From IMG/VR virus record IMGVR_UViG_3300037067_027683, positions 38,385 to 102,384 of that record: a stretch of DNA of 64,000 nucleotides; one strand, given 5' to 3'. The notes under the pieces were generated by a model, which saw only the letters and a list, made by a program, of their open reading frames with translations, was not told the origin of the DNA and made no database searches. A program made the position numbers and the translations under genes. This DNA comes from a virus (Duplodnaviria; Caudoviricetes). Below are positions 37,268 to 53,751 of this stretch, piece by piece (within the stretch, counting starts at the first letter, position 1; every line of letters begins with the position of its first letter).

Positions 37268-37856
37268 AGAATTAATTAGTCTGCTTAATAAATTAGGCAA
37301 GCAGCCAACAGATACTATTGATTCAGAACAGGAACCTATAGCGCAATCGGTACGTCCAGAAGTTGTAAGAGACGTACCAATAATCGCAGAAATGTCGAAA
37401 TCAGTTGTGGAACCAGAATTAAGACCACCTGCACCACCTGAAGTCCCAAAATCTGATTTAATGAATACAGCTCCACAACCAAAGGATGCAGCTGAGATTA
37501 GTCAATTATTGACTAAATTTGCGACAGTTATAGACACTATCATTGCTAATTATGGAACTGATCGTGGTCAGATTGAGTTAGCAATACAATTGATTGAACC
37601 AATGATACGAGAAGCAGCTACTGTAAACAAAAAGGTTCCACCGGCTTTCGTAGATTCTTGGACTAGACTATTACAAACTAAGGCCGAAATTAATACAAAT
37701 GCAACTAGTGCTCTAGATTCTGTTGCAAAACTCCTAGCTGCCGCAAAAAATAATCAATTGGTTGTTCAAACTAATGTGGGCACCAAGGGCGGCGGGATGG
37801 ATTTAGTGACACTGTTGCAGCTTCCTCGTACGGAAGACGAGGATTTGACTAGATGA
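37239..37856 (+). CDS. putative terminase small subunit
   Basis: helical C-terminal half; immediately upstream of TerL (positional inference only). Confidence 0.45.
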   Translation: MPDQPIAEDKELISLLNKLGKQPTDTIDSEQEPIAQSVRPEVVRDVPIIAEMSKSVVEPELRPPAPPEVPKSDLMNTAPQPKDAAEISQLLTKFATVIDTIIANYGTDRGQIELAIQLIEPMIREAATVNKKVPPAFVDSWTRLLQTKAEINTNATSALDSVAKLLAAAKNNQLVVQTNVGTKGGGMDLVTLLQLPRTEDEDLTR

Positions 37857-39766
37857 TTGAAGTAGTAAATCTTAATCAAATGCAAATGATGACAGCGCTT
37901 ATTAAGCGCTGCCAAGCAAGTGCTATATTCTTTATTGAAAATTTCTGTAAAGTTAAACACCAGAAAGCAGGTATTTTGCCGTTTAGTTTATTCAGTTATC
38001 AACGCAGATCTTTGGTTGATTTTCTAAAAAATAGATTCGTTGTTTATAAGAAGACTAGACAATGTGGTATCTCTACTTTAAGTGGTGCTTTTGCGTTGTG
38101 GTATGCAATGTTCTTCCCACATAAGACTATCTTGATTGTATCCAAACGTGATCTAGATGCTAAAGAATTCTTAGCTAAAAATGTTAAGTTCCCATATGAT
38201 AATCTTCCACAAGAATTTAAAGATCTGTGGGGAGATCCACCACCAACCTATAATGAACATCATATTATATTCCCTAATGGGTCGTCAATTAAGAGTTTGA
38301 CGTGTGGTAAGGATACCCTACGAGCCAATGCGTCATCATTGAATTTAATAGATGAGTCTGGATTCATTCCTTGTATGGATGCTATGTGGGCAGGTGGCGC
38401 AAGTACAGTTATGCATGGTGGTACTACCATAGTGATCTCAACGACGAATGGAGTTGGTAATTGGTATCATTCAACTTGGCAGGATGCTGTTGAAAATAAA
38501 AACAATTTTCATCCTATTAAAGTTGATTGGTGGGACATGGATTGGGAATTATCATATAAAGATGAATTAAGTGGGAATACTGTTAAAATATCGCCACGTG
38601 CTGGAATTCGTAAATGTGAATCAAAAGAAGAAATCGATAAATGGGGTCCTTGGTGGAGTCCTTGGCTTGAAGAGCAATATCGGATTTTGCAAAGTCGTGG
38701 TGAGGAGAATAAGTTTAGACAGGAAGTATTGGCTGAATTTCTTGGTACTGGCAATTCTGTTCTGCCGCCAGACCGCTTGAAGAACATACAAAAAACAATC
38801 AAAGACGACTATCAAGTGGTTAATGAAGTTGACTATACTAATCCTGTAACCGGTGATGAATTCAAGTTATATTTTGAAAATCAATTACGCATATGGCATA
38901 AACCAGTAAGACCAGAACCACCGGAAATTGAGAATGGAAGAATAATCAAACCAGCTAAGCCAGGTCATGTTTATAGTGTCGGTGTCGATATTTCATCTGG
39001 TGAGGCAGACGATTATTCTGCGATTGAAGTAATTGATTGTAACGCTATGCATCAGGTAGCAGAATTAAATATTAAGGTAATGCCCAAACAATTAATTTAT
39101 ATGGTTGATTATATTGCCAGATGGTATAATAATGCCTTTGTTGTTCCAGAACGCACTGGATTAGGGATACCAGTATGCCAATCTCTTTATAGTGATATTG
39201 GATATGCTAATTTATTTAGAATGAGACTGCCGACTGGAAAGTTGAGTAAGAAAATAGGTTTTCCAACATCTCCTACCTATAAGCCACAATTAAATAAGGC
39301 AATATTAGATAATCTTGGTCATGATGAAGAAGATGAAGGAGTTGTAATCTATAGTAGTAGATTATGGCAGCAACTTACAATCTATGTGCATTTTGGCAAT
39401 AACAGAACTGGACATGTCGATGGTCCTGGTAATCATAGTGACTTGTCGATTGCTATGGGATTGGCCTTAGTTGGTATTATGGATGCTGTGCAGGGCGAGC
39501 CTACATCTTTAATTCCGACTCAGGGTTCCGATCAATCTGAGCCAATACTTGAATCGCAAAAGAAGTTAGATGATATGCGTAATGCTGGTGGTCTGAATGT
39601 TTTAATGCCATTTATTACTGCGCCACAATTATCTATATCAATGAGTCCTGACGATGAGTTGCGTAAATTTACAAACCAGCTTGGTGGAGTTCCATTGGGT
39701 TCTAAAACAGCCACACAACAGGCATTTGTAACTAAACGAAAGAATGTAATTAATTATCCAAAGTAA
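37853..39766 (+). CDS. terminase large subunit (gp17-like)
   Basis: FIENF, YQ, KTRQCGIST, IDE, STTNG, FRQE, GVDIS..DYS, HSD. Confidence 0.95.
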   Translation: MIEVVNLNQMQMMTALIKRCQASAIFFIENFCKVKHQKAGILPFSLFSYQRRSLVDFLKNRFVVYKKTRQCGISTLSGAFALWYAMFFPHKTILIVSKRDLDAKEFLAKNVKFPYDNLPQEFKDLWGDPPPTYNEHHIIFPNGSSIKSLTCGKDTLRANASSLNLIDESGFIPCMDAMWAGGASTVMHGGTTIVISTTNGVGNWYHSTWQDAVENKNNFHPIKVDWWDMDWELSYKDELSGNTVKISPRAGIRKCESKEEIDKWGPWWSPWLEEQYRILQSRGEENKFRQEVLAEFLGTGNSVLPPDRLKNIQKTIKDDYQVVNEVDYTNPVTGDEFKLYFENQLRIWHKPVRPEPPEIENGRIIKPAKPGHVYSVGVDISSGEADDYSAIEVIDCNAMHQVAELNIKVMPKQLIYMVDYIARWYNNAFVVPERTGLGIPVCQSLYSDIGYANLFRMRLPTGKLSKKIGFPTSPTYKPQLNKAILDNLGHDEEDEGVVIYSSRLWQQLTIYVHFGNNRTGHVDGPGNHSDLSIAMGLALVGIMDAVQGEPTSLIPTQGSDQSEPILESQKKLDDMRNAGGLNVLMPFITAPQLSISMSPDDELRKFTNQLGGVPLGSKTATQQAFVTKRKNVINYPK

Positions 39767-46775: not shown

Positions 46776-48326
46776 ATGAAGCTCGCAAGTCACGCTCGTG
46801 GGGTTATTACCGAAGAGGTCAGAAAAGAGCGCGAAGCTCATCTGCTCCTTGAAGGTAAGAAAAACCAAGACATTCGACGTTGGGCACCAGTACTTTCAAA
46901 GTGCTCAGAAATTCGGCCTGAGAAGTACGCCTTGATGGCCGCAATGCTGGAAAATCAGCAAAAGGCATGGGACCCAAAGAGCCGCACTCCGCTCTTTGAG
47001 GAAGCAACCACCACTGGCAATATTGCAGACTTTACTCGTTTTGCATTGCCAATGATCCGCAAGAGTTTCCCGCGCTTGATTGCTGATAACCTTGTTGGTG
47101 TTCAGCCGATGAGCACCCCAGCCAGCTTGATCTTCTACATCCGCTATCGTTACGCCATTTCCAAAGGCCAGACGGTTGCTGGAACGCAGATAATGCGTCA
47201 GAATACGGCTCAGCAGTTCAGCCGCCAAAACGGTTGGGCGCTTGACCCGTACTACAGCTCTCAGACAGTTAAGGACGAGGATCTGACGATTGTTGGTGGA
47301 AACGTCATCACCGGCACGTTGGTTCACCGCCCAATCCTCGCAGGAACAGTGGTTGTCAACGTTTACGCAGAAGATGTTGATAACTGCGAATCTCCGACCC
47401 CATGCCTCCAGGTCGGTTTCGACGCCAACGGCGATCCAGAATTCGTTCTGGTTGGCTCTGGCTCAGACTGCCCAGAAGTTACTGTTGATACATCCACCTC
47501 TGGCGCAACTCACTTTGATCATACCACTGGCGCAGTGGTTATCACTCTGAGTTCGGGCACTCTGACTGCTGGTATGCTCGCTCGTGCTGACTACGAGTTT
47601 GATCTTGAGAATAACCCGTTCCAACCAGAACTGACGCTGAGCATTGACAGCGATTCAGTTTCTGCTGTAACGCGCAAGCTCAAGACCACTTGGTCGCTGG
47701 AAGCCGCTCAGGACCTCAAGAGCGTGCACAACATCGACGCAGAAGGAACCCTCACCGACCTGATGGCCGATGAAATGGTTGCTGAGATTGACCGCGAAAT
47801 CATCAACGACTTGATCATCGCCGCTTCTATCCGCGCCACCCACAACTTCGCAACTGCTGCGGGTGCCTCGGTTAACTTCACGGACCGCAACATTGCGTTG
47901 CTCTACAAGGTCCTGGAAGTTGCGAACATCATCCACCGCACCACGCTCCGTGGCCCCGCGAACTGGATGGTGACTTCGGCGGATATCGCCAGCAAGTTCG
48001 AACAGCTGAACGATTTCCGTGGTTCGGACGCCCTCGCCCAAGACGGAATCGATATTGGCATCACTTCTGCCGGTACGATCCAAGGCAAGATCAAGCTGTA
48101 CAAGGACCCGTTGTTCCCGAACTGCAAGATCCTGCTTGGCTTCAAGGGCAACTCGGTGCTCGATAGCGGATACTTCTACGCTCCGTACATCCCGCTGCTC
48201 AGCACTCCAACCGTGCTTGATCCGAATTCCTTCACTCCATCGAAGGGGATCATGACAAGATACGGCAAGAAACTCATCGAGGACGGCGGTCTTTACTACG
48301 CCGTTGTCACGGTTTCAAATCTCTAA
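46776..48326 (+). CDS. major capsid protein (gp23-like)
   Basis: VGVQPM..P, TRKLK..WSLEAAQDL..H.IDAE, EIDREII, GYFYAPYIPL, KGIMTRY. Confidence 0.97.
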   Translation: MKLASHARGVITEEVRKEREAHLLLEGKKNQDIRRWAPVLSKCSEIRPEKYALMAAMLENQQKAWDPKSRTPLFEEATTTGNIADFTRFALPMIRKSFPRLIADNLVGVQPMSTPASLIFYIRYRYAISKGQTVAGTQIMRQNTAQQFSRQNGWALDPYYSSQTVKDEDLTIVGGNVITGTLVHRPILAGTVVVNVYAEDVDNCESPTPCLQVGFDANGDPEFVLVGSGSDCPEVTVDTSTSGATHFDHTTGAVVITLSSGTLTAGMLARADYEFDLENNPFQPELTLSIDSDSVSAVTRKLKTTWSLEAAQDLKSVHNIDAEGTLTDLMADEMVAEIDREIINDLIIAASIRATHNFATAAGASVNFTDRNIALLYKVLEVANIIHRTTLRGPANWMVTSADIASKFEQLNDFRGSDALAQDGIDIGITSAGTIQGKIKLYKDPLFPNCKILLGFKGNSVLDSGYFYAPYIPLLSTPTVLDPNSFTPSKGIMTRYGKKLIEDGGLYYAVVTVSNL

Positions 48327-48341
48327 ATCTAACGCTGTTCA

Positions 48342-48380
48342 GAAAGAACCCCAGCTCATCACTGGGGTTCTTTCGTATTC
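48342..48380 (+). terminator. intrinsic terminator
   Basis: 13-bp stem GAAAGAACCCCAG/CTGGGGTTCTTTC after the capsid gene. Confidence 0.85.
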
Positions 48381-48429
48381 GGACTTTTATGTTTCTGAGC
48401 ACTTGATATGACTCCTACCAAGGAGAATT

Positions 48430-48750
48430 ATGAGCCAAGAAACTGAATTAGACCATAGTATTACTGGCGGTAACTTAAAAGACCCTCCAATTTTGGGTGT
48501 TGGTTTTGTCATTGCTGCTATTGTTGGAGTATTCGCTGCTGGTATTTGTCTAATTGCGGTATATGGACGTGTGGATGAAGGTAGATCTGTTTCGGTTAGT
48601 GCTGTTCAAACTTTGATCTATTGTGTTGCAGTCATGTGCGCCATTGCTGGTTGGAGCTGGTTGGAGTGGCTTGATCACATTGTCAAAAGCTTCTATAAAG
48701 ATTTGGCGTATCTGGAAAAGAAAAGAAATTGGATGCCCACATACTGTTAA
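48430..48750 (+). CDS. small membrane protein (2 TM)
   Basis: AAGGAG RBS; two hydrophobic segments. Confidence 0.65.
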   Translation: MSQETELDHSITGGNLKDPPILGVGFVIAAIVGVFAAGICLIAVYGRVDEGRSVSVSAVQTLIYCVAVMCAIAGWSWLEWLDHIVKSFYKDLAYLEKKRNWMPTYC

Positions 48751-48776
48751 AGCAATATGTGCTAGTCTAACATCAC

Positions 48777-48992
48777 ATGTTGATTGGAAACAAGAAATCA
48801 CAGCTTGTAATGTTATTTGGTCTAACGGGAAGCTACAAATTTATATTGAACTTGGATTCTCCCACTCTTAGAGTAGAAGGATTGGTCTTGACTGAAGATG
48901 AGAAGAATCAGATCAAAATGGCTTTAGATAGGATGCATGCTGAGAAAATTTTGTCTGATGGCTTGAACTCTAAAGATAAATCCAATTCCTAA
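48777..48992 (+). CDS. hypothetical protein
   Basis: 71-aa ORF; start uncertain. Confidence 0.4.
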   Translation: MLIGNKKSQLVMLFGLTGSYKFILNLDSPTLRVEGLVLTEDEKNQIKMALDRMHAEKILSDGLNSKDKSNS

Positions 48993-49222
48993 TTTAATAG
49001 CATTTGGGCACCACTTAATGATCTTCTAGCGTTCTCGATATATCGCTCAATTTCGGAGATATCTTTCTTTGTGAGTTTCTTCTTTTTCCGTCCTTTTTGG
49101 AAAATAGTCATGGCTTCATATAATTCTTTGAGTGCTAAGTTTCTTCCGTCAATAAGAGCTTTTACGTCAATAATATCTCCGTCTTGTACTTCTGTGTAGA
49201 TATTACTCTTTCTCCTTGGCAT
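48989..49222 (-). CDS. hypothetical protein
   Basis: 77-aa ORF coupled to the upstream minus-strand gene. Confidence 0.65.
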   Translation of the reverse strand: MPRRKSNIYTEVQDGDIIDVKALIDGRNLALKELYEAMTIFQKGRKKKKLTKKDISEIERYIENARRSLSGAQMLLN

Positions 49223-49223
49223 A

Positions 49224-49454
49224 TTAGTCCTCGTATTCTAAATTATTTTTCTCCGCCAACCAACGTGGAATATCAACCTCACCAATGTCTCCTTTCTGAT
49301 GTATTGTTTGTCGATCAATTTGACTCTTAGGTATCCATAGCTCTACTTTGGTTTTTTCTTCTTCACTACTTTCGTTGATTGCCACACCAATTGCTTTGGT
49401 GGTCTCCGCTAAAAAGATTAAATTGTCAACTGTCACTAGGTCTTTGCCGTCCAT
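49224..49454 (-). CDS. hypothetical phage protein
   Basis: AAGGAG RBS; ETTKAI..WIPKSQI..IPRWLA motif common in small phage proteins. Confidence 0.7.
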   Translation of the reverse strand: MDGKDLVTVDNLIFLAETTKAIGVAINESSEEEKTKVELWIPKSQIDRQTIHQKGDIGEVDIPRWLAEKNNLEYED

Positions 49455-49504
49455 ATTGGTCTCCTTTGTATTTGAAATACGCAAATATATTTTAGGAGAT
49501 TTAA

Positions 49505-51699: not shown

Positions 51700-51972
51700 A
51701 TGTATTTTAATCATATGATTGCTTTTTGCGTTCGTTGTAATAAACTAGCTTATTGGGACGGTGGAAAGGGTAAGAAACTTTCCAGACGTAGATGTTCTAA
51801 ATGTTTTGGGATGCTCACTGGTACTATTCCGCCTGGGAATTATTCCGGTACTAGGTCAATTGATGTAGCCAGAGCAACTGCATTGAGAAGACTGCAATCA
51901 CGAGTTAATGTTGTTGATCAGCCACAATTAACTGCTCCAGTTGAGCTTGGCGACAGAAATTTGATTCTTTAA
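51700..51972 (+). CDS. Zn-ribbon protein ending LGDRNLIL
   Basis: CVRC..CSKC. Confidence 0.65.
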   Translation: MYFNHMIAFCVRCNKLAYWDGGKGKKLSRRRCSKCFGMLTGTIPPGNYSGTRSIDVARATALRRLQSRVNVVDQPQLTAPVELGDRNLIL

Positions 51973-52016: not shown

Positions 52017-52520
52017 ATGATGCGACGTAATTTCCTGTGTTTGGCGGTAGTAGGTCTGTTGATGATTCCATTTGGTTGTGGAGAGAAGCCATTGACTCCA
52101 GAGCAGATTACGAAGATCTGTAATGAGTCTGGTCAGATTTCTGCTCTTGCCTGGGTTGCTGCAGCCAAGCCTACACCAGATCAGGTGAAGGCTGTCAAAT
52201 TTGTCCTTGATGATATTGCCAAGAATTTGAAGGAATACCAGCAGGGTGGTTTTATTGCTGCTCTTCCAGGTATTGAGGAAGGGATTAAGAAAGCTTTTCC
52301 TGGTGAGGATGAGAGGAATATTGCTCTTCGTAAAATTGCCTCGACTTTAGCGAAGAATATGTTGGAAGGATTGGATAATTTGTTTGCTCAACATCCTGAT
52401 TGGAAGAATAAGGGTGCTGAAGTTGCTGGTTACGTTGCTGCTTATGCTTCTGGTGGATCTGCGGCTTTAGATGATTTCGTGGTGAAGGAGACTGCGAAGC
52501 TTGCTAAGGAAAAGAAGTAG
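52017..52520 (+). CDS. putative lipoprotein
   Basis: MMRR, hydrophobic h-region, FGC lipobox-like site; AAGGAG RBS. Confidence 0.75.
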   Translation: MMRRNFLCLAVVGLLMIPFGCGEKPLTPEQITKICNESGQISALAWVAAAKPTPDQVKAVKFVLDDIAKNLKEYQQGGFIAALPGIEEGIKKAFPGEDERNIALRKIASTLAKNMLEGLDNLFAQHPDWKNKGAEVAGYVAAYASGGSAALDDFVVKETAKLAKEKK

Positions 52521-52577
52521 TATTTGATGTCTTGGGCGGAATAAGGTGTGATCCCTTATTCCGCCCAAGGAATAGAT

Positions 52578-53000
52578 ATGAGTCTAATTCAAGCTTCAAG
52601 TATTCCAAGAGAAATACTTGGTAACATAATACCAGTCGATGATCCAGCTTTTCTAGATGAATTTGCTATTCCTAGGGCAGTTGTTTATGCTAATATACCT
52701 GTTCTTGATAGTTTTCAAGGAATTCCACAAAGTCCTGGCGAGCATGTGGTGGACTCAGCTTTAACTTCAAATGTGATTTCACAAATTTTGAATTATATTC
52801 GTGATGAATTGAATTGGAATTATTTGTACGTAATTGGTCGTCTCCCTAATAGATTAGATCCGAATAGTTTCACAGTTGAGCGTAGGTATTTCGCAAGAGG
52901 ATTATGTGTTCCATCTGACATAATATGTGGTGTGCGACCATCAGAAATAGAAACAGTTAGAGACATACCTGTTCTTGGTGATCGTACTTTGGAGCTTTAG
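52578..53000 (+). CDS. hypothetical protein carrying the capsid-like LDPNSFT motif, ending VLGDRTLEL
   Basis: ORF 52548-53000; ATG 52578 follows AAGGA. Confidence 0.65.
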   Translation: MSLIQASSIPREILGNIIPVDDPAFLDEFAIPRAVVYANIPVLDSFQGIPQSPGEHVVDSALTSNVISQILNYIRDELNWNYLYVIGRLPNRLDPNSFTVERRYFARGLCVPSDIICGVRPSEIETVRDIPVLGDRTLEL

Positions 53001-53073
53001 CGGGCATAGTTTAGTGGTAGAATGCAACCCTCCCAAGGTTGAGATACGAGTTCGATTCTCGTTACCCGCACCA
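53000..53073 (+). tRNA. tRNA-Gly(CCC)
   Basis: cloverleaf, one acceptor mismatch, A73, CCA. Confidence 0.85.
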
Positions 53074-53085
53074 TAGGAGTTGATC

Positions 53086-53685
53086 ATGGATGAGTTGGGG
53101 TCACGTACCTTGGTGTTGGGTGAGGAGGTTAAGTATGTAGTGGGTGTTGATCTAGCACCAGTTACGGACAATCGCAATGATTATTCTGCTGTGTTCATGT
53201 CTGGCAGACGAATTGGCAAATCCACCACAATGTTAAACGCGTTGTCTGCGGAAGTAGAATCACAGAATCGATCTATTCCTACTCCTAGCTTTACAAGACA
53301 GACATTACGAGAAGGTTTCGAAATACTTAACCGTGATCCTGTTGTTAGGCAAACACTTCAAGATAACGCAGTTAGACAGATGCAGCAAGAGGAAGATGAA
53401 GCGATTATTAGGGATATTTCTTTGGTTTCTACTCCGACAGATCCAACTACTCGAATTATGGAATCAACACCTAGATCAACACCGGCACCGAGATTATTTG
53501 ATACTGAACCAATTAGATTTCGTGATCGTGGAGTTCTAGAAACTGGATATTTCTACGCTTCATATTTTCCACTTCAAACTACTCCGACAGTGTCAATACC
53601 AGACACTATGGAGAAATTAAGAGGGAAATTAGTTTATCGCTATACTTATGTTCTTGGTGATCGTGCTTTAGATATGGGGGATTAG
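53086..53685 (+). CDS. mosaic protein of terminase and major capsid motifs
   Basis: AGGAG RBS; segments align to TerL and capsid proteins encoded in this window. Confidence 0.75.
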   Translation: MDELGSRTLVLGEEVKYVVGVDLAPVTDNRNDYSAVFMSGRRIGKSTTMLNALSAEVESQNRSIPTPSFTRQTLREGFEILNRDPVVRQTLQDNAVRQMQQEEDEAIIRDISLVSTPTDPTTRIMESTPRSTPAPRLFDTEPIRFRDRGVLETGYFYASYFPLQTTPTVSIPDTMEKLRGKLVYRYTYVLGDRALDMGD

Positions 53686-53751
53686 CTCATTCAGGAGAGC
53701 GCCTGCTTTGCATGCAGGAGGTGATCGGAGCGAAGCCGATATCCTCCACCA
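53676..53751 (+). tRNA. tRNA-Ala(TGC)
   Basis: G3:U70, T-loop AGCGAAG, CCA. Confidence 0.9.

Follow-up and report, generated by a model that had tools for sequence, protein, structure and literature searches.

An open reading frame (ORF) of 199 codons (P0001; 53086 to 53685, plus strand) in the tRNA gene array of an uncultured jumbo phage probably encodes a genuine mosaic of core virion protein fragments that is maintained by selection. The predicted protein combines a copy of a conserved capsid stretch with two short words that resemble terminase active-site motifs, and both of its termini carry a peptide tag found on other ORFs of the same phage. It apparently represents one member of an undescribed class. 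We propose, with a probability of roughly 0.4, that the protein works as an immune bait, i.e., that its copied peptides would engage host proteins that recognize parts of the capsid and the terminase.

The source record (102 kb), which is the portion of this genome that we examined, belongs to a T4-like phage with a genome of approximately 372 kb. The window (i.e., the entire 64,000-nucleotide stretch of DNA analyzed here) is the end of that record. The same protein is also recorded for a 371,794-bp contig. Terminase, portal, prohead protease, and gp23-type capsid genes, including those for the large terminase (TerL; 37853 to 39766, plus strand) and the major capsid protein (Pfam Gp23; 46776 to 48326, plus strand), precede an array of 29 tRNA genes downstream of the head-gene region. 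Within this array, the ORF is flanked on the left by tRNA-Gly(CCC) (53000 to 53073, plus strand) and on the right by tRNA-Ala(TGC) (53676 to 53751, plus strand). The latter overlaps the final 10 nt of the ORF, whose stop codon lies within the 5' end of the tRNA. A ribosome-binding sequence, AGGAG (53075 to 53079, plus strand), directly follows the CCA end of tRNA-Gly and is located 6 nt 5' of the ATG. The intact frame and good ribosome-binding site described in an initial annotation of this DNA are thus borne out. The remaining five frames across the same interval contain 8 to 19 stops each. The GC content at third codon positions (0.28) resembles that of the terminase and portal genes and differs from that of the capsid gene (0.61). 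A search for a promoter of the ORF yielded nothing above chance. Elsewhere in the window, a 167-aa ORF with a lipoprotein-like signal and no family match (52017 to 52520) is identical at the DNA level between strains. The genes directly after the capsid gene (48376 to 49500) differ between strains (106, 227, and 229 aa, in comparison with L001 and L086), which marks a variable slot.

The capsid copy (residues 145 to 186; 53518 to 53643, plus strand) was the sole match to survive when the protein was scanned blindly against 87 families derived from nine related genomes. It corresponds to residues 456 to 496 of the phage's own capsid protein (encoded at 48141 to 48263; about residues 438 to 477 of T4 gp23), with 45% identity and an E value of about 1e-6 in a within-genome search. 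Against a profile of 61 capsid sequences from the clade, it scored 23 bits, a value reached by none of 400 shuffled sequences (shuffle maximum, 0.9). Of its 36 weak matches in a phage collection, 35 were to the same capsid stretch in Asteriusvirus-like phages. The initial annotation had counted 14 of 20 identical residues at 53533 to 53592; we obtained the same count and found that the match extends over residues 145 to 186. We take the copied stretch to be the P-domain hairpin, on the basis of the established structure. The capsid domain names used here follow from alignment to T4 gp23 and from the established fold, because the quality of an AlphaFold capsid model was too low for locating the segments. 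The likeness to T4-type gp23 and vertex protein gp24 (PF07068; HK97 fold) is confined to the alignment of residues 145 to 186 with the C-terminal conserved stretch of these proteins. The 199-aa protein lacks a full HK97 fold (N-arm, E-loop, and P- and A-domains), containing just this one 42-residue stretch out of approximately 450, and its Pfam Gp23 score (10.5 bits; cutoff, 24.4) covers only positions 309 to 346 of the 376-position profile. A second proposed capsid resemblance did not hold up: the predicted helix at residues 98 to 111 (53377 to 53418, plus strand), previously likened to the capsid spine helix, was equaled by 930 of 2,000 shuffled sequences.

The two terminase words occupy the N-terminal part of the protein. 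The first is a nuclease word of the RNase H-like type that includes both acidic positions (residues 17 to 36; 53134 to 53193, plus strand), and the second is a terminase-type Walker A word (residues 39 to 48; 53200 to 53229, plus strand), which follows the nuclease word as initially noted. The initial annotation had matched the nuclease word to the TerL of the window (38972 to 39025); this match comprised 9 of 20 residues (E value, 5.9) and was not significant alone, and the word did not survive the blind scan of 87 families. Tests chosen after the sequence had been seen were more favorable. With a targeted nuclease-motif profile, the word scored 9.4 bits (none of 2,000 shuffles as high) and ranked first among 3,079 orphan ORFs in this post hoc comparison. 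In a scan of coding DNA, about 24 of the 33 long IMG/VR ORFs carrying its first eight residues were terminases, and five representatives were confirmed as members of phrog_2 or phrog_38, the terminases of other phages to which the word is closest. The second acidic half-motif follows at a terminase-like spacing of seven residues (background rate, 0.0014), and the same spacing is seen in several of the IMG/VR terminases with the word. The Walker A word differs from the Walker A of the phage's own TerL (38048 to 38083) and gave no score against the TerL Walker A of its own clade; long IMG/VR ORFs carrying it or a near-identical variant were exclusively terminases of other phages (three independent cases).

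The nuclease word is probably a genuine terminase match, and the Walker A word plausibly so. Both likely derive, in reversed order, from a terminase of a foreign type, because their long IMG/VR carriers are mostly terminases of other phages and the phage's own Walker A is dissimilar. A second terminase could also be encoded in the remaining 270 kb of the genome. The initial claim that all segments match virion proteins of the window therefore holds for the capsid copy, whereas the helix is at chance level and the terminase words fit other phages better. Apart from the two words, which total approximately 30 residues, a full terminase of the Terminase_6N/6C type (ATPase with Walker A and B, coupling motif, and nuclease domain) is absent from the protein; it has no Walker B and no domain match in Pfam, PHROG, or NCBIfam. 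A tblastn search of the phage collection with the terminase and helix segments returned only unrelated matches (E values of 2 to 7). As judged from sequence, the 199-aa protein is not a member of the gp23 family or of the terminase families.

The initial annotation expected no full fold, and no fold was predicted by AlphaFold2 in single-sequence mode (pLDDT, 32.5; pTM, 0.20), although such a model cannot prove disorder, or in the ESM Atlas model (pLDDT, 0.34). The Pro/Thr-rich linkers that it also described are represented by residues 114 to 143 (53425 to 53514, plus strand; 53% Pro, Thr, and Ser); the other parts reach only 17 to 20%. When 5.8 billion proteins, 1.84 billion representatives, IMG/VR, and JGI metagenomes were searched for homologs, the protein and its variant in a second strain of the same species were all that was recovered. 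Scans of the segments against Pfam, PHROG, NCBIfam, and the PDB gave nothing beyond Gp23 at E values of 0.07 to 0.4, and the protein belongs to no known family. A match to P0002 (E value, 2.5e-31), a bacterial surface protein with ten repeats, was rejected as a homolog because each of the repeats matches weakly and the score is a sum of chance similarities. The 199-aa protein is thus confined to one phage species. The second strain, which differs in its homing-endonuclease insertions, retains the intact ORF with three synonymous changes and one nonsynonymous change, a weak hint of purifying selection from one strain pair and four differences.

A feature that the initial annotation had missed links the ORF to its neighbors. 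Across the 102-kb record, five otherwise unrelated ORFs carry a total of six copies of the pattern LGxRxLxL, where 0.03 are expected, and every copy lies no more than 12 residues from a terminus. The codons of the tag vary synonymously among copies, which indicates that the peptide itself is what is kept. The 199-aa ORF is tagged at both ends (residues 3 to 11, 53092 to 53118; residues 189 to 197, 53650 to 53676; plus strand), and the DNA of its C-terminal tag is identical at 22 of 24 positions to the 3' end of the tagged ORF immediately upstream. This upstream ORF (140 to 150 aa; 52548 to 53000, or from 52578 in its shorter form, plus strand) has its tag at 52971 to 52997, and its stop codon overlaps the first base of tRNA-Gly. 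It also contains seven residues (52854 to 52874) identical to the hairpin turn at capsid residues 481 to 487, a borderline match that 1 of 1,000 shuffles equaled yet that did not exceed the best reversed controls. The other tagged ORFs are a Cys-rich ORF of 90 aa (51700 to 51972, plus strand; tag, 51943 to 51969), a 310-aa ORF between two DnaE pieces (G000:C1:18048-18980; L150:549-1481), and a 171-aa orphan with a C-terminal tag and no detected donor adjoining a helicase gene (G000:C1:6397-6912; L149:1098-1613). The 310-aa ORF is itself a patchwork of tail-fiber pieces, in which a tail-fiber module (phrog_9648; E value, 3e-8) is followed by YadA-like, Gly-rich, and collagen-like repeats and then the tag; in the second strain, it shows two synonymous changes, no nonsynonymous changes, and two small indels. 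In two relatives, protein scoring detected tag-like ends on WGR-domain and DUF6744 proteins (G019:C1:86155-88230; G002:C1:188260-193681), in which a tag-like peptide is also repeated internally, whereas a DNA-pattern scan of relatives and IMG/VR gave only chance-level matches.

Several further observations concern the tagged ORFs and their surroundings. The stop codons of the upstream and 199-aa ORFs (52998 to 53000 and 53683 to 53685) are located entirely or in part within the tRNA that follows, likewise in the second strain, and the array contains several HNH genes that terminate within tRNAs as well. Maturation of the tRNA 5' ends would therefore yield stop-less messages. A near-perfect 17-bp hairpin (52531 to 52569; z score, -6.4) is located just 5' of the tagged ORF starting at 52578. 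An ESM Atlas feature search linked this ORF (52578 to 52997) to RNA polymerase beta fragments (0.97), with no Pfam support and a recognition value below the threshold. A 288-aa ORF (G000:C1:19822-20688) ends in what resembles a degenerate tag (RRLDL).

Capsid fragments on orphan ORFs recur across the clade. Of 33 related records, 11 contained short orphan matches to a capsid profile, 16 in total. No stop interrupts any of these frames, and the remainders of the proteins carrying the matches are mutually unrelated. Two of these other orphans carry capsid pieces in reversed order, and one relative encodes a 42-aa ORF in which this capsid hairpin is fused to another shared N-terminal tag. Among 3,080 orphan ORFs from nine genomes, the short virion protein pieces were mostly from the capsid, with one sheath piece and one tube piece. 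This excess is partly a detection effect, because only conserved words stay recognizable and no family in the clade is more conserved than the capsid (mean identity, 77%). The choice of segments within the capsid is also uneven. The pieces cluster at capsid residues 75 to 130 and 445 to 480 and avoid the equally conserved residues 345 to 425 (P of about 0.001, although the pieces may not all be independent). We take the two hotspots to be the N-arm and P-domain, and the avoided region to be the A-domain, from knowledge of the fold. The block at residues 75 to 130 aligns with the part of the first quarter of T4 gp23 in which the Gol peptide lies, and half of the orphan pieces in the clade are copies of this Gol-equivalent region. 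The block is present in seven other orphans but was not detected in the 199-aa ORF, where 232 of 2,000 shuffles scored as well.

The capsid pieces look selected rather than like debris, as suggested by synonymous saturation, conservative replacements, and nonrandom segment choice. When nine pieces were compared with their own capsid genes, synonymous sites were saturated, with 65 of 185 codons identical (63.6 expected), at amino acid identities of 46 to 78%. Replacements were more conservative than in simulated neutral decay, both for the 199-aa ORF (P = 0.03) and for the nine pieces pooled (0 of 500 simulations). Capture from a diverged donor could mimic the saturation and conservative-replacement signals; a close donor was found neither among 1.84 billion representatives nor, in a weak search, among longer proteins. 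The initial argument against simple gene debris is strengthened by the conservative replacements, the lack of stops in all 16 pieces, and the biased segment choice.

These same data bear on the possibility that the ORF is a by-product of gene birth. Accessory arrays might capture scraps of phage genes together with a docking tag, and the ORF might owe its retention to the tag or to something else, its words having no role as mimics. Such an origin would fit a singleton protein with no fold and a scrambled order of segments, and the 22/24-nt repeat shared with the neighbor and the stop codon borrowed from a tRNA indicate recent recombination. The tail-fiber patchwork on another tagged ORF and the conservation bias of detection also accord with it. 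However, neutral scraps would not be expected to show conservative replacements and an absence of stops, nor a nonrandom choice among equally conserved capsid segments, nor catalytic terminase words that are retained with no flanking sequence. We regard this explanation as possible, though on balance unlikely.

Bacterial immune systems detect conserved features of the capsid and terminase that are difficult for phages to change by mutation. The role as a bait that we favor envisages an accessory gene that recombination pieced together from short peptide modules and that selection has retained, whose product would be a largely unfolded string of bait peptides. Such a string could bind proteins that recognize short or unfolded parts of the capsid and terminase, the most plausible candidates being Lit-, CapRel-, or Upx-like host sensors, and would not present the folded surface needed to fire them. 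The tag might then dock the bait and the captured protein on a common hub, such as a protease, a remodeler, or a scaffold. Avs sensors bind folded cores via large shape-complementary interfaces (10.64898/2026.01.04.697583; PMC13601566), with Avs7, Avs8, and Avs10 binding the capsid A-domain; the elements recognized by Lit and CapRel, in contrast, are short motifs (10.64898/2026.01.04.697583). CapRel has been modeled on the capsid P-domain sheet and spine helix (PMC9712102), and Upx has been modeled binding unfolded terminase strands (PMC13601566). Given these binding modes, a chain predicted to be unfolded would be poorly suited as an Avs decoy, whereas a role as bait for sensors that read motifs or strands is plausible. 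Two precedents count against a bait: a free Gol-like peptide triggers Lit rather than blocking it (PMC3014915), and T4 vs.8, a terminase-like accessory ATPase, triggers Avs2 (PMC13601566), so that fragments can be liabilities. At a broader and more speculative level, which we consider rather improbable as a whole, jumbo T4-like phages may run a modular bait system in which conserved capsid and terminase peptides are shuffled onto tagged accessory proteins, so that one unfolded protein catches several kinds of motif-reading immune sensors and brings them to a hub of the phage or the host, where they would be sequestered or destroyed.

Two other functions appear doubtful. The protein might interfere with or tune assembly, its hairpin strand inserting into capsid subunits and its terminase words disturbing packaging motors, and thereby poison co-infecting phages or satellites or time the assembly of the phage's own heads. 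The copied capsid stretches are subunit-contact elements of the HK97 fold, and the foreign type of the terminase words would suit an attack on competitors. Nevertheless, the capsid piece is of the clade's own type and would endanger the phage's own heads, and active-site words of 10 to 20 residues would be buried in the folded enzyme rather than exposed at oligomer interfaces. The protein might instead be a handle for host factors, its peptides recruiting or titrating partners of nascent capsid and terminase (EF-Tu, chaperonins, or proteases) with no immune role. We know of no housekeeping partner of the capsid hairpin or of the terminase active-site words, and the 199-aa protein has no Gol-equivalent piece; we judge this function no likelier than assembly interference, even though half of the clade's orphan pieces copy the Gol region, the gene lies in a tRNA array among translation-related functions, and the T4 Gol region binds EF-Tu in an interaction proposed to be general (PMC3014915). 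The multi-epitope decoy of Avs STAND sensors that the initial annotation had proposed is very improbable: SeAvs3 does contact the terminase active-site residues and ATP, the words copied here (PMC13601566), but Avs sensors envelop folded cores through large interfaces, the protein has no predicted folded domain that would present a terminase ATPase or a capsid A-domain surface, and the capsid pieces of the clade avoid the presumed A-domain region bound by Avs7, Avs8, and Avs10.

Several known systems resemble parts of the proposed bait. The Gol peptide of T4 gp23 (Gol/Lit/EF-Tu; PMC3014915) provides a precedent for a short gp23 peptide that alone binds a host protein; it is part of gp23 itself and triggers defense, whereas the 199-aa ORF carries another capsid stretch. 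The anti-DSR2 protein DSAD1 (PMC11087589) embodies the principle proposed here, in that an accessory phage protein competes with a virion protein for a sensor, but it is a folded, single-target inhibitor with a demonstrated partner and has no chain of copied peptides and no tag. In Bodo saltans virus, ankyrin ORFs fuse catalytic-region fragments of core viral proteins to a binding module, and a decoy role has been proposed only (PMC5871332). That virus is a eukaryotic giant virus, and its binding modules are ankyrin repeats instead of a 9-residue tag. T4 vs.8 shares with the 199-aa ORF its derivation from terminase but has a folded ATPase domain that activates Avs2 (PMC13601566). Our search of the literature, the coverage of which was incomplete, found no paper on tagged capsid/terminase patchwork proteins in phages.

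If phages answer immune sensing with copied peptides, the copied stretches would map the epitopes read by sensors of uncultured hosts, and, if the bait reading is true, the peptides would be ready baits for fishing unknown sensors. The biased choice of capsid segments provides a concrete, testable prediction. Should the role not be immune, the class would still exemplify gene birth from scraps of core proteins plus a docking tag, a previously undescribed route.

Other small ORFs in related genomes display comparable features. At least six small ORFs in one region (L049:15000-21000; G012:C1:9887-15865) open with a common MNFKII-like leader, and one of them contains the capsid hairpin word. Another row of small ORFs (G003:C1:334500-336600) shares a Cys-Arg-Cys-Gly-His leader; in one of these, a module common to its neighbor is spliced into a capsid piece. 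Two short prohead-protease look-alikes (G003:C1:223944-224351, 135 aa; L081:18426-18704, 92 aa) lie distant from the head genes, the first of them in a tRNA cluster. A 119-aa orphan (G007:C1:96379-96738) starts with the motif found at the N terminus of the tail sheath protein (17 bits), and a 118-aa ORF (L083:15772-16128) is a stand-alone copy of the capsid insertion domain (capsid residues 157 to 280; 55 bits).
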